Part shown: positions 46,797-50,293 of the stretch, piece after piece
Numbering within the stretch: the stretch's first letter is position 1
How the letters are laid out: each line of letters begins with the position of its first letter
DNA from: an uncultured Methanomicrobiaceae archaeon
Lineage (GTDB): Archaea > Halobacteriota > Methanomicrobia > Methanomicrobiales > Methanoculleaceae
Direction: 5' to 3'
Assembly (NCBI GenBank): GCA_963826525.1
Contig: CAWGXH010000004.1
Location: 192,001 to 256,000, forward strand
Length of the DNA stretch: 64,000 nucleotides
Notes under the pieces: model-generated
Told to the model about the DNA's origin: nothing
What the model saw: the letters and a program-made list of their open reading frames with translations, nothing else
The model's database searches: none
Position numbers and translations under genes: made by a program

Positions 46797-47045
46797 TTAC
46801 ATTATGCCAAGCCGGCTGAGGATCTCTTCAGCGGCCTTTCCATCAGCAAAGCTCACGATGGCCTTCTTCCGGCCCTTCATGGTCATCAGCGTTCTGACCT
46901 GGGTGACTTCCTTTCCAAACGACTTCTCAAACTCGCGCTTGATGTCCTGCTTTGATGCGTCGTTGTCGACCAGAAACTGAAGTTTGCTCTCGTTCTCAAG
47001 CATCATCGTCGCTTTTTCAGTGACAAACGGATGTTTCAGTACCAT
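46797..47045 (-). CDS. rpl23: 50S ribosomal protein uL23
   Basis: HPFVTEKA, GRKKAIV. Confidence 0.95.
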   Translation of the reverse strand: MVLKHPFVTEKATMMLENESKLQFLVDNDASKQDIKREFEKSFGKEVTQVRTLMTMKGRKKAIVSFADGKAAEEILSRLGIM

Positions 47046-47792
47046 TCAGTATCCCTCCAGTTTCCGCAGGGCGGAGGCTGTCCAGAGTGTCAGACGTCCT
47101 GCCTGCGTGCCGGGTGCCAGTAGTTCCGTGTTCAGCTGGTTCACCATGACGGAGTCAACACCGGCAAGGTTCCGGGCTGCGCGGAGCGGTTCGTCTCCCG
47201 TGACGATCAGAACGCTCTTTCGCTGCTTGTAGCGGCGGCCACGCATGGTACCCCGACCTGCCCTGACCTTCTTGCTGCCCTTTGCACGCTCAACATCGGC
47301 ATAGATACCAACGGCGGTGAGGGCGGCGATAACATCGCTCGTGCGCGTGAGTCCTTCGAACTGGTCTTCGAGAACCAGCGGGAGGTCTCCCTCGAACAGG
47401 TGTCCGCGCTCGCGAACGAGGTCGGTACAGACGGTAGCTGCTATCGCAGAGCGGAGAGCTTTCTGTTTCTCTTTCTGGTTGATCTGCTTGACGAGGATCT
47501 TTTCGACCTTCGGGGGGTGAGCTGCGCGCCCTCCCACTGCCTGGGGAATCCGGGCAACTCTGCTGCCGTTCTTCAGCCTCGGGACCTGTGCGACACCGCG
47601 GCCGCTACCCCAGGATGTTGCAGACGTCCGGAGGCCTGCAAACGGATGTGTTCCGTGCGGCTGGAACCGGGTGCTCTGAAGTGCCAGAACTGCCCGCTTA
47701 ATCAGGTCCGGTCTGTACTCTTCCGCGAAGACTGCAGGAAGATCAATCTCCTCTGCACGCTCTCCCTTCAGTGTTCTAATGTATGCCTTCAT
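47046..47792 (-). CDS. rpl4: 50S ribosomal protein uL4
   Basis: RPDLIKRAV, SWGSGRG, GGRAAHPP, LAPG. Confidence 0.96.
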   Translation of the reverse strand: MKAYIRTLKGERAEEIDLPAVFAEEYRPDLIKRAVLALQSTRFQPHGTHPFAGLRTSATSWGSGRGVAQVPRLKNGSRVARIPQAVGGRAAHPPKVEKILVKQINQKEKQKALRSAIAATVCTDLVRERGHLFEGDLPLVLEDQFEGLTRTSDVIAALTAVGIYADVERAKGSKKVRAGRGTMRGRRYKQRKSVLIVTGDEPLRAARNLAGVDSVMVNQLNTELLAPGTQAGRLTLWTASALRKLEGY

Positions 47793-47799
47793 TGACACG

Positions 47800-48814
47800 T
47801 CACCCCTGCTTGCTCTGGACACTGACAAAGTTGATAGCCGGTGTCTTTACAGCCTGTTCGCCCTGCCTGATTGCAGTTCTCAGCCGTACAAGCCGCTTCG
47901 TCGGCCCGGGAACCGATCCCTTGATAAGGACATACGGACCGCGAATCATACCGTAGTGGAGGAAACCTCCTGCAGGCGTGATATCGTCGCCGTTGTTTCC
48001 GACCTTGAGAATGCGCTTGTTGAACTCGGTTCGCTGGTGGTAACCGCACTGACCCATCTGGGGAACCTGCCAGCGGACGTGGTGCGGAGTCCACGGTCCG
48101 AGAGTTCCGATGTGGCGCTTCTTGCCGCCGCGGGAGTGTTTGCGCTTGCGCACCTGGACACCCCAGCGCTTGACCGGACCCTGGGTACCCTTACCGGTAG
48201 TGATGGCGGTGACATCAACGAAGGCACCGGTCTCGATGACCCCGGAGATACCGACCTCTTTACCGAGGATGTCGGTTGCGTAGACGAGCTGATCCGCAAT
48301 GCTGCCTCCGGAGATCCGCATCTCCATGAGGTCGGGCACCTTCTTCGGAACACCGGTGAGTCCGGAGGGCTGCGTATAGGCCAGAGCATAGATCTCGACG
48401 ACCTTGCCCGCCTCAACCGCAGCCTTCATGGCGTCGAGAGCGGCGGCGCGGTCGTGGTTCTTCGGCATGGTGATCCGGCGGCCGAGCTCCTCGTTGAGAG
48501 AGTCTGACCAGGCCTCGGTCAGCGCATGCTTACCGTACGTATCGTTCGTGTAAGCACGCACACCCGCCACTTTCATGGGGGGTACTTCAATGACCGTCAC
48601 CGGTACCATCACATCTTTGCCTTCGGTGGGACTGGTCTTATGGTCGTCCACCATGACAAGGTGAGTCATACCAACCTTGTACCCTGCAAATCCCTGCACC
48701 ATCGGAGTCCCATCGGTACTCGGGCCAGGCACCGTACTTCGGAACCGGGCTCTTTGCACGCTTTCGGGGACTGTATGCGAGGGATCCTCTGCGTGGCCTG
48801 TTTATCTTCGGCAT
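47800..48814 (-). CDS. rpl3: 50S ribosomal protein uL3 (frameshift ~48715)
   Basis: [44 protein letters not shown]. Confidence 0.96.
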
Positions 48815-49535
48815 GTTTCTATCAACCCTTCGTGCGTTGTATTGTGATGCACCGACCGGGGACTTTGGAGATGCGTATCTCCGCACCCCGGCTCGGTCCG
48901 AGCAACTCCGGAAGGTTTTCGAAAAACCTTCCGAGAAGGTGCATCAATGCTACCGAACTGGTCGGCAATTCGTCTTTTGAATGTCGGCGAACCCGCTAGG
49001 GGCATGACATCGATGCTGCACAGGGGACGTGTTGTGAGGCAGGCAGCGCAAGCCTTGCTGCCCCCGGTGCAAGCATGACGTGGAAGGGGACGGTATCCGA
49101 CTGTAGCGTCTGCTCTCATCCCGAGGCATACTCCGCCGATGGAGATCTCCACCGGAAAGCGGCTGTAGCCCATAGGGTAGAGGCAGACTCCTCTTCCTGG
49201 CGTGCACCAGATAATCCAGTCTTCTCGAATAGATCCTGACCATCCGGCGTTTCCGGAGAGCCTCCGAAAGTGGGCTCGCTGCACTGAGCGTTCGCCCGTC
49301 GCCTCGGTCAGATCCAGCTTCTGTCAACCCGTTGTGCCGGAGCACAACTCCTTCTCGACATCGCCCTCCGCAAGGAGGGTTCGACCATGTGGTTTTGTCA
49401 CCCGCGTTGTCTGCGATACGCCGCCGCACCTCCAGCTTCAGCCAATAATGGTGGAGCCGGGATTTCGTGATAATTCAAGGCTAATTTAGCCTTATTTTAT
49501 CAACGATAAAGAGCGGCTTATCGCAGAGCGGTTTC
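48815..49535 (-). ncRNA. Candidate large structured RNA / 5' leader of the S10-spc operon
   Basis: About ten hairpins and several long-range helices, G-U pairs favouring the minus strand, no convincing ORF; TATA-like TTTATAT at 49563-49557. Confidence 0.6.
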
Positions 49536-49746
49536 TTAAATTTAGCCGCAAATCAGATATAAACCTTCTCATCGGATCGTACACGAATTCTGCAGAAAGA
49601 GGAAGTTCCCGGGCAATCGTCCCCGGGATGCAGGAAAGGGCAGTATCCCATATCGGCCTGACACCAGGTCTTTCCGAAATGGGATACTCTCCCATCGCCG
49701 TTCACCCCGGTGCGCTCTTTCACCCGTCACGGATGAAACAGCAGGA

Positions 49747-50151
49747 TCATCCGAAATAGAGTTCGCCGTCTTCGTTGATATAGACTTCAACATCCTCACG
49801 GATGTACCTGGCTCTGAACCGCTCGGGATTTGAATCACGGAGCCTGTTGATGAGTGAGATGGTATCGTACTTGACTTTGATGCCCACTTTTTCGGCTTCG
49901 TCGTAGATGATCTCCGGAGTTTTCAAGAGGTCCGTGCCTGCCTTGAGAGTACAGAGATGCGCTGCGTCGAGCGTATAGAGAAACTCTATCGTCTCCCGTG
50001 CACGAGAGATATTCTCAAGAGCAGCCTTTTCGATGGTACACACGTTTGCCTTGGAAGTCCGGATAATCTCGGCAATCTGCTGCTGGGTGAGACCCTTCCT
50101 GCGGTATCGCAAAATTTCTTTCTGACGGTCGGTGAGGAGCCCCTGTTTCAT
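49747..50151 (-). CDS. tfx: Tfx-family DNA-binding protein
   Basis: LTDRQKEILRYRRKGLTQQQIA..TSKANVCTIEK.A.ENI.RARET HTH. Confidence 0.9.
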   Translation of the reverse strand: MKQGLLTDRQKEILRYRRKGLTQQQIAEIIRTSKANVCTIEKAALENISRARETIEFLYTLDAAHLCTLKAGTDLLKTPEIIYDEAEKVGIKVKYDTISLINRLRDSNPERFRARYIREDVEVYINEDGELYFG

Positions 50152-50293
50152 TGTCATAGTATGTAGCACCATACAACTTAAACACTTTTCCTTAACATCC
50201 CTGCATGGGGAGAGACCGGGAGAGGAGATTTCAAAATGTTTATATGAGAAATCGGTGATATTATCGTGTTCTCAAATTTGAGAGGTGTAAAAA

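Follow-up and report, generated by a model that had tools for sequence, protein, structure and literature searches.

A conserved RNA junction ahead of the rpl3 operon of Methanomicrobiales, a candidate operator left from the messenger of a SPOUT methyltransferase gene

Introduction

Little is known about how archaea control their ribosomal protein operons by feedback. In Escherichia coli the leader of the S10 operon is bound by L4, and the L1 site on the Methanococcus L1 operon mRNA mimics rRNA. A question of this kind is raised by a stretch of 64,000 nucleotides (nt) from an uncultured Methanomicrobiaceae archaeon (GenBank assembly GCA_963826525.1, contig CAWGXH010000004.1, positions 192,001 to 256,000; hereafter the window), in which a gap of 933 nt on the minus strand separates the stop codon of tfx from the ATG of rpl3 (48814-48812), the first gene downstream. 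What does this long space contain, where does it come from and what preserves it? An initial annotation made from the sequence alone described it as a densely structured, non-coding and uncharacterised RNA and interpreted it as a large leader with regulatory function in cis, by rRNA mimicry or as a sensor, or as a processed stand-alone RNA. The observation was confirmed in the present analysis and the interpretation was partly supported. The centre of the region belongs to a known and doubtful RNA family, RF03135; new here are its origin within the gene of a methyltransferase of the SPOUT family, its survival after decay of the gene and the enlarged structure that surrounds it. Altogether, the leader can be read, with a probability of roughly 60%, as the decayed messenger of a PF02598/COG2106 SPOUT gene in which the junction serves as operator of the operon.

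A known three-way junction at the centre of the gap

A comparison with Rfam (cmscan) matched the central 76 nt of the region to RF03135 above the gathering threshold, so that the region is not wholly uncharacterised. The element and its surroundings are located as follows:

49236..49311, minus strand: three-way junction, Rfam RF03135 (L4-Archaeoglobi), with P1 CUGAC/GUCAG, P1b GGCG/CGCC, P2 (49297-49272) and P3 (49269-49251)
49215..49318, minus strand: the junction with its conserved flanks, GCUGGAU on the 5' side and GAUCUAUUCGAGAAGACUGGA on the 3' side, matched with 104.4 bits by the covariance model R1 (described below)

The match to RF03135 reached 42.0 bits (gathering score 34.5) and extended over model positions 1-85 of 85, with an E-value of 5.9e-5 for the 64 kb window and of 1.1e-6 for the 1.2 kb region 48600-49800. 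All the helices of the family form in the model match as well as in the minimum-energy fold of the window, and the closing stem P1 is the long-range helix 49236-41/49306-11 that had been drawn beforehand. P1 is extendable by the flanks GGAU/AUCU with a bulged G, an extension compatible with the sequence that covaries weakly (pair 7:152: UA 35, CG 7, UG 5, other 11). The Rfam scan of the whole window gave two matches only, one tRNA and RF03135, in agreement with the absence of RNase P and SRP RNAs noted earlier.

In the part of PMC7247131 that was accessible, RF03135 is one of four archaeal candidates and is described as a motif upstream of rplC, rplD, rplW and rplB in the lineage Archaeoglobi. 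The element of the window shares with this description the junction of P1/P1b, P2 and P3, the strand and the position ahead of rplC-rplD-rplW-rplB, as it lies upstream of rpl3, rpl4 and rpl23 and on the same (minus) strand. Unlike the family as described for Archaeoglobi, it belongs to Methanomicrobiales and, at a distance of ~420 nt from rpl3, makes up the core of a ~725-nt leader with further conserved hairpins. Neither an overlap of RF03135 with COG2106 nor a long leader is described in the literature searched; the supplement of PMC7247131 may already comment on these points.

The junction lies inside a SPOUT gene in most of the phylum

In a sample of 151 genomes of the phylum, RF03135 was matched in 97, once per genome, and PF02598 in 87. 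In the 30 best-match loci the junction was found without exception inside an open reading frame (ORF) in sense orientation, of 271-390 amino acids (aa) as counted from the first in-frame ATG, that ends 0-121 nt before rpl3, the junction itself being located ~400-530 nt upstream of this gene. Nine such ORFs were tested and all nine proved to be full-length members of PF02598 (Methyltrn_RNA_3), with E-values from 7e-42 to 1e-65. A comparison of the two tables of matches revealed that, outside the order of the window, 84 of the 86 genomes bearing RF03135 also have PF02598, and in the 12 genomes compared by coordinates the RNA match fell within the protein match (12/12). Haloferax volcanii, a genetically tractable archaeon included among 14 control genomes, has both. 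The initial annotation had stated that many euryarchaea have a SPOUT methyltransferase gene at this position, and it was this remark, borne out by the presence of PF02598 before rpl3, that explained the region. The scans show that most RF03135 matches in the phylum sit in a PF02598 gene and that the non-coding state, which is found in the window and in the 27 ORF-less loci compared, is derived. The family description would be corrected accordingly, as most members would be located inside a gene and not in a leader. Judging by position, the junction would correspond to the part of the gene that codes for the inserted OB-fold domain.

As far as the accessible parts of these papers go, PF02598/COG2106 comprises SPOUT methyltransferases whose SPOUT domain bears an inserted OB fold (PMC1829167). 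The family was proposed as the enzyme for 3-methyluridine (m3U) in haloarchaeal 23S rRNA, at a position modified in Haloarcula and Haloferax, and its genes were noted in operons for ribosomal proteins in Pyrococci, Archaeoglobus fulgidus and Halobacterium (PMC2584109); animal homologs of PF02598 make m3U in the peptidyl-transferase centre, and a pair of homologs in yeast interacts genetically with RPL3 (PMC13015370). Members of this family include MT1 of Methanothermobacter (PDB 1k3r), yeast Upa1/Upa2, human SPOUT1 and fly Ptch, the latter two making m3U in 28S rRNA.

Loss of the reading frame and retention of the junction

In the order of the window PF02598 was detected in 2 of 41 genomes and, in a larger sample, in 5 of 121, distributed over three genera of two families; a six-frame search gave no PF02598 match in the genome of the window or in the other genomes of its family (24/24). 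The intact gene of genome G030, where the gene order is tfx, SPOUT, rpl3, aligns to positions 391-550 of the leader with 72% nucleotide identity (E 5e-19; 174 columns including 17 gaps), a stretch that covers the entire junction together with P-alpha and P-gamma, two hairpins. The ancestral frame still gives EGVVLRHNGLTEAGSD in the window where G030 has EGVVLKHNGLTDAGSD, after which the frames part (comparison by eye). The leader and the SPOUT gene are therefore connected both by nucleotide homology and by the same neighbours, tfx and rpl3, and, unlike SPOUT genes, the leader fails the profile, ORF and periodicity tests. These sequence comparisons indicate that the leader was not built from scratch and is a decayed PF02598 transcript.

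To follow the RNA across the order, a covariance model (R1) was used that derives from 16 sequences of the order with the structure set by hand. R1 matched all 59 loci of the initial set and 106 of the 121 genomes, in all six families (f1 22/22, f2 18/20, f3 12/12, f4 13/22, f5 18/22, f6 22/22) and once per genome with one exception; with filters off it also found the junction in the five loci missed by RF03135 (5/5), each time between tfx and rpl3. Since PF02598 is present in 5 of these 121 genomes, ~101 genomes retain the RNA in the absence of the protein. On a uL3 tree, a quick maximum-likelihood tree of this single gene with 66 rows (L190, which holds no uL3, was left out), at least five changes of PF02598 presence are required, and strongly supported branches force four.

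One of these changes is a separate decay of PF02598 outside the order, also upstream of rpl3, in loci L058 (G078) and L059 (G146). In these genomes relics of the former gene are readable over its full length; the RNA has no P3, and its P2 is rebuilt with new sequence, bearing a UUCG cap in L058.

Conservation and selection at the RNA level

A blastn search with the region gave a match in 26 of 41 genomes (40 relatives plus the genome of the window), and the core (~49195-49391) was matched in 18/18 genomes of the large sister genus g6, across which it is 77-81% identical. In an alignment of 20 gaps four blocks are invariant or nearly so, namely the TATA block, the TTTAAGAAACCGCTCTG motif, the ~200-nt core and the ribosome-binding region; the remaining parts of the gap are variable, and the window and its nearest relative G001 have extra insertions. 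The identity of columns among 19 relatives was distributed as follows:

Upstream of the TATA box: mean column identity 0.69, invariant 5/185
5' domain: mean column identity 0.72, invariant 9/118
Core: mean column identity 0.93, invariant 115/196
3' domain: mean column identity 0.79, invariant 25/199
rpl3, codon position 1: mean column identity 0.945, invariant 216/337
rpl3, codon position 2: mean column identity 0.966, invariant 259/337
rpl3, codon position 3: mean column identity 0.809, invariant 53/337

The core is devoid of three-base periodicity, its three phases having identities of 0.922, 0.909 and 0.927 against 0.945, 0.966 and 0.809 in rpl3. A search of genome contigs with the P-alpha motif, a pattern of 15 specified bases that is too short for that contig collection, returned among the matches listed (80 of at least 120) eight with Methanomicrobiales names (Methanoculleus 2, Methanoregula/Methanoregulaceae 3, Methanomicrobiales archaeon 3); the others look like bacterial chance matches.

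The covariation check that had been recommended for this region was performed on 59 sequences in a model-fitted alignment. Of 1451 pair cells, 94.9% formed standard pairs; the share was 76.3% in shuffled alignments and 33-52% when the partners were slid by 1 to 3 columns. Changes on both sides occurred in 18 of 26 pairs, with a shuffled mean of 12.7 and none of 500 shuffles reaching 18, figures that overstate the significance because many rows of the alignment are close relatives. Four of the five helices show compensatory changes. P1b, inner P2 and P3 covary at every pair, and there is hardly any variation in P1 and outer P2. Inspection by eye revealed the following variants:

P2: GUCGGUAUCGAC; GCCGGUAUCGGC; CGUUUAAAAAACG; GUUUGUACUCAAGCUACAAAC
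P3: UCCCUCCAC/GUGGAGGGGGA; CCCUUCUUCGCA/UGCGAAAAGGGG; in the window, UUUCGGAG/CUCCGGAA(A)

The lengths of the R1 matches, taken from their coordinates, have the residue 2 modulo 3 in all 32 coding copies; the 27 ORF-less copies show residues 2, 0 and 1 in 17, 6 and 4 cases, and their 11 distinct lengths split 2, 5 and 4 over the same residues. Within coding copies, the segment tested starts at the UGA of P1 and ends with the 3' strand of P1b, so that the P1 stem is incompletely included. Compared with 200 synonymous-codon shuffles of each gene, the native segment has the better fold in 28 of the 29 genes (z below -2 in 18 of the 29; mean z -2.19). These comparisons place selection on the junction at the RNA level, including on top of the protein code in most of the coding copies. 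Covariation, selection over the protein code and survival of the loss of the protein together argue that RF03135 is a real RNA structure.

The leader as a whole is also strongly folded. The sense strand of 48812-49540 reaches -307.3 kcal/mol against -258.4 +/- 6.9 in 20 dinucleotide shuffles, none of which was as good (z -7.06), and the antisense strand of the same region has a z of -5.29, in line with the densely structured RNA in rpl3 sense that had been annotated.

Layout of the leader

The leader would extend over ~725 nt on the minus strand, from ~49540 to 48815, its 5' end being placed by inference. In the order of transcription, its predicted parts are:

49557..49563, minus strand: TATA box TTTATAT, putative promoter of the leader and the rpl3 operon, ~750 nt upstream of rpl3
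49524..49540, minus strand: motif TTTAAGAAACCGCTCTG, nearly invariant columns in the 20-gap alignment, starting 17 nt past the end of the TATA box
49395..49523, minus strand: 5' domain, closed by CCGCUCUGCGAUA (49531-49519) with UAUCGCAGA..GCGG (~49427-49410)
49364..49379, minus strand: hairpin P-beta, CCCUCC-UUGC-GGAGGG, retained in 20 family members
49331..49348, minus strand: hairpin P-alpha, GUUGUGC-UCCG-GCACAAC, stem invariant in 20/20 family members, loop of 3-8 nt
49196..49211, minus strand: hairpin P-gamma, UCUGG-UGCACG-CCAGG, retained in the family with two pairs changed on both sides
48832..49195, minus strand: variable 3' domain with lineage-specific hairpins, including 49136-55, 49042-62, 48909-33 and 48856-91
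48821..48831, minus strand: Shine-Dalgarno-like site GAAGGGUUGAU for rpl3, nearly invariant in 20/20 relatives

The TATA box, correctly noted before as lying far upstream, belongs to the block AAGGTTTATATC, whose columns vary little or not at all across the 20 aligned relatives (20/20). In genomes that have the protein, a TATA-like box of the SPOUT gene occupies the equivalent place; it was seen by eye just upstream of the intact gene in four of seven loci inspected (L041, L044, L046, L048). The TTTAAGAAACCGCTCTG motif would mark the 5' end of the transcript. The helix closing the 5' domain has 16 pairs, 5 of them changed on both sides, in the RNAalifold consensus of 20 relatives, in which its strands are CCGCUCUGC... 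with ...GCAG..GCGG just upstream of the core, and it also forms in the minimum-energy fold of the window. P-alpha and P-gamma are both present inside the intact gene of G030. P-alpha reads GUUGCAA/UUGCAAC in L057, with three pairs changed on both sides, and in other families a different hairpin takes the place of P-beta, CCUCCUCA/UGAGGAGG in L056 and GUCCCU/AGGGAC in L054 (all by eye).

Presence in RNA libraries

One metatranscriptome run (X1, from a single study) contains contigs of close relatives, 90-99% identical, that cover 49186-49515, 49093-49215 and 48923-49020, as well as one contig that spans 48471-48855 across the start of rpl3. Nothing was matched in X1 upstream of 49541; contigs cannot show a start, and the edge at 49541 is therefore no evidence for a start site. 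Two other RNA runs, X2 and X3, gave no matches.

Probable function and alternative explanations

In the model proposed here, the SPOUT gene originally stood intact directly upstream of rpl3, as it does in most of the phylum, carrying the junction RNA within it; its reading frame was lost several times in the order of the window, and the junction and its flanks remained under strong selection as RNA, with further hairpins and the closing helix of the 5' end conserved around them. The junction would then act as a protein-binding operator in the operon transcript, through which a ribosomal protein of the operon, when in surplus, might regulate by feedback how much rpl3 mRNA is full-length or translatable. 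As ligand, the Rfam name points to uL4, and uL3 or another protein would fit equally. Since the folded element alone was retained from the decayed gene, it probably has a job of its own in the control of the rpl3 operon, and feedback control would be its most likely function, with the RNA acting in cis through a protein partner to affect expression. A cis-acting operator, which the authors of the Rfam family also proposed, fits because the element has a fixed place and strand, occurs in single copy, survived without the protein and is followed by a conserved 3' flank bearing a palindrome (GAUCU.UUCGCGA). That an RNA operator arose inside an rRNA methyltransferase gene and outlived it after at least 4-5 separate decays, in more than 100 methanogen genomes where the RNA alone remains and has expanded into a long structured leader, is in our estimate about an even bet.

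In locus L054 (G025) four tandem copies of CUUCGCGA were observed ~10-70 nt 3' of the junction, a palindrome-bearing motif found after the junction across the phylum. Such a fourfold amplification suggests that the motif itself is a binding site.

The leader of the E. coli S10 operon is likewise a structured RNA ahead of an operon for L3, L4, L23 and L2 and offers a model for the proposed feedback. It differs in domain of life, transcription machinery and distance to the first gene and is unrelated by sequence or Rfam family, the E-value scan of 48600-49800 having given RF03135 only. The L1, S15 and eL15 operators embody the same idea, a ribosomal protein binding the messenger of its own operon, and these sites resemble the rRNA site of the protein, in contrast to the core studied here, which shows no likeness to 23S rRNA by sequence. 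The accessible part of PMC7247131 names the S10 leader and L4 as precedent and counts archaeal S15 and eL15 leaders as rRNA-mimicking operators.

Several observations weigh against the operator model. RF03135 was rated '?' by its own authors, and L4 was assigned as its ligand solely on the 'Prior' principle, L4 being the ligand of a bacterial leader (both according to the accessible part of PMC7247131); data on binding of L4 to RF03135 were not found in the literature searched. The rRNA mimicry invoked in the initial annotation found no support, as the best local score of the core against the 23S rRNA of the same genome (L061) was 20, compared with 21.6 +/- 2.4 after shuffling, in a comparison by sequence only that involved the core (49195-49395) and the whole leader with 100 shuffles, and the words shared were of 8-14 nt, at chance level. 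Masking of the rpl3 ribosome-binding site by CCCUCC or by another segment of the leader was considered and rejected: in 30 ORF-less leaders it was mostly no better than in shuffles, and the best duplexes had no constant location, some lying even before the promoter. A distance of ~420 nt between the junction and the rpl3 start is also far for a translational operator. The element is dispensable, since several families of the phylum have neither PF02598 nor RF03135 (f7 0/14, f11 0/3, f12 0/5, f15 0/14, f26 0/1). Among coding copies, the advantage of the native fold over synonymous shuffles is small in f24 and some of f14, and little extra folding was detected in L038, L040, L045, L046 and L047 (z from -0.97 to +0.32), with L048 and L049 near -1. 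The alignment used for covariation was fitted to the structure of the model and contains many close relatives. Finally, the X1 contigs show neither strand nor ends nor expression level, and DNA is possible in such libraries.

An unlikely alternative holds that the core exists as a stand-alone small RNA, either processed from the leader or made separately, acting in trans or as a scaffold, for instance with a role in ribosome assembly that replaces the SPOUT protein, its place upstream of rpl3 being merely inherited. The ~200-nt core is far better conserved than either flank, a single-copy element was retained after at least 4-5 losses of the ORF and contigs from an RNA library cover the core, all of which would suit such an RNA; in addition, the eukaryotic homologs act on large-subunit rRNA, the yeast pair on a snoRNA scaffold, as far as the accessible part of PMC13015370 states. 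The core has, however, no promoter of its own, the sole conserved TATA box being that at 49563-49557, and in most of the phylum the element lies within a translated ORF, a better fit for a cis element.

It is improbable that the region is a functionless pseudogene relic, the product of a recent loss and slow decay, with RF03135 as an artefact of conserved coding sequence. This would explain why most RF03135 matches lie inside PF02598 ORFs, why the family received its '?' (PMC7247131, accessible part) and why the most strongly kept stretches encode residues conserved in intact genes (GSD, VRI.SR). Decay was nevertheless uneven, leaving a nearly invariant core amid sequence that the PF02598 profile does not recognise in any frame; stems of ORF-less copies change on both sides, and loop lengths shift out of frame beside invariant stems; the same segment was retained after at least 4-5 separate losses, and most coding copies fold better than their synonymous-codon shuffles.

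Function as DNA, e.g., as the site of a regulator in which the tfx product or the palindrome TTCGCGAA could be involved, seems very improbable. The presence of tfx as upstream neighbour in 29 of 30 Methanomicrobiales loci, and the palindrome of the 3' flank, repeated four times in G025, would accord with it; the compensatory changes in four of five helices point instead to a folded single strand, and the element invariably has the sense orientation of the operon.

A protein still encoded by the region, be it a shortened remnant of the OB fold or the full methyltransferase, with the frame breaks as assembly errors, is hardly credible, for the one-base frameshift of this assembly in rpl3 and a 159-aa sense ORF (48950-49429) in the ancestral frame over the core are outweighed by the lack of any Pfam match, by the lack of a six-frame PF02598 match in 116 of 121 genomes, including the single-contig genomes G007, G013 and G014, by ORFs that vary in frame and strand among relatives, by the missing three-base periodicity and match lengths out of frame, and by a space between promoter and rpl3 of ~600-725 nt that, compared with ORFs of 271-390 aa, is too short for the full gene.

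If the operator model is true, RF03135 would be a coding-plus-RNA element across a whole archaeal phylum, and the supply of large-subunit proteins would be tied to an RNA signal that once belonged to the messenger of an enzyme that modifies the peptidyl-transferase centre. A natural experiment is provided by sister lineages that have kept or lost the reading frame, in which the function of the RNA is separable from that of the protein. In general terms, long 'empty' leaders ahead of conserved operons can be gene relics held by an embedded RNA.

Neighbouring genes and lineage-specific features

The genes that flank the leader are the following:

49747-50172, minus strand: tfx (Pfam TFX_C, E 2.5e-33)
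47800..48814, minus strand: rpl3 (uL3), first gene downstream of the leader, its N-terminus matching 19 relatives
47046-47828, minus strand: rpl4, after rpl3
46797-47045, minus strand: rpl23, after rpl4

The order tfx, gap, rpl3 is retained in 20/20 loci of the relatives compared. Over the Methanomicrobiales loci showing their upstream flank, tfx precedes the leader or the SPOUT gene in 29/30 (by locus set, 20/20, 5/5, 5/5 and 1/2), a count that stands apart from the loci of the larger PF02598 survey of 121 genomes; the exception is L052, with no tfx match in its short flank. No tfx match was detected next to the gene in L021-L050, the other classes examined.

None of the five ORFs in or overlapping the gap, nor the ORF mostly antisense to rpl3, matched a Pfam family at E-values up to 1, and the gap ORFs vary in frame, strand and length across 20 relatives, with no frame conserved among them, as anticipated from the absence of a credible protein.

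The rpl3 gene is frameshifted in this assembly only, near 48714-48720 (minus strand): after ...AWPEY the window reads RWDSDG..., where 19/19 relatives continue in frame with ...G(T/A/S/V)P..VQGFAGYK, and the RNA-library contig of a close relative has one base fewer at 48714. The frameshift is probably an indel of the assembly, the genome being 87.6% complete, and further small indels may therefore exist in the window.

With regard to the eight local stems that had been listed, six stand as placed (48909-48933, 48856-48891, 49042-49062, 49136-49155, 49331-49348 and 49364-49379), that at 48856-48891 consisting, as described, of GGAGAT/ATCTCC inside CCGGGG/CCCCGG. Pairing is also possible at the other two, 49243-57 and 49258-77, in competition with the covarying P3 and P1b, and relatives do not retain it. 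The reading of the region as a long, conserved and structured non-coding leader in rpl3 sense, with its promoter far upstream, is supported; strong conservation is confined to the ~200-nt core, and most of the listed 3' stems are lineage-specific. The consensus of the 3' domain is weaker (34 pairs, 14 changed on both sides), and the alignment places in it insertions of ~130 nt common only to the window and G001, to which the stems at 48856-48933 belong. Inside this shared insertion the RNA-library contig of a relative skips 48854-48922 (69 nt), and this segment is therefore variable even among close strains.

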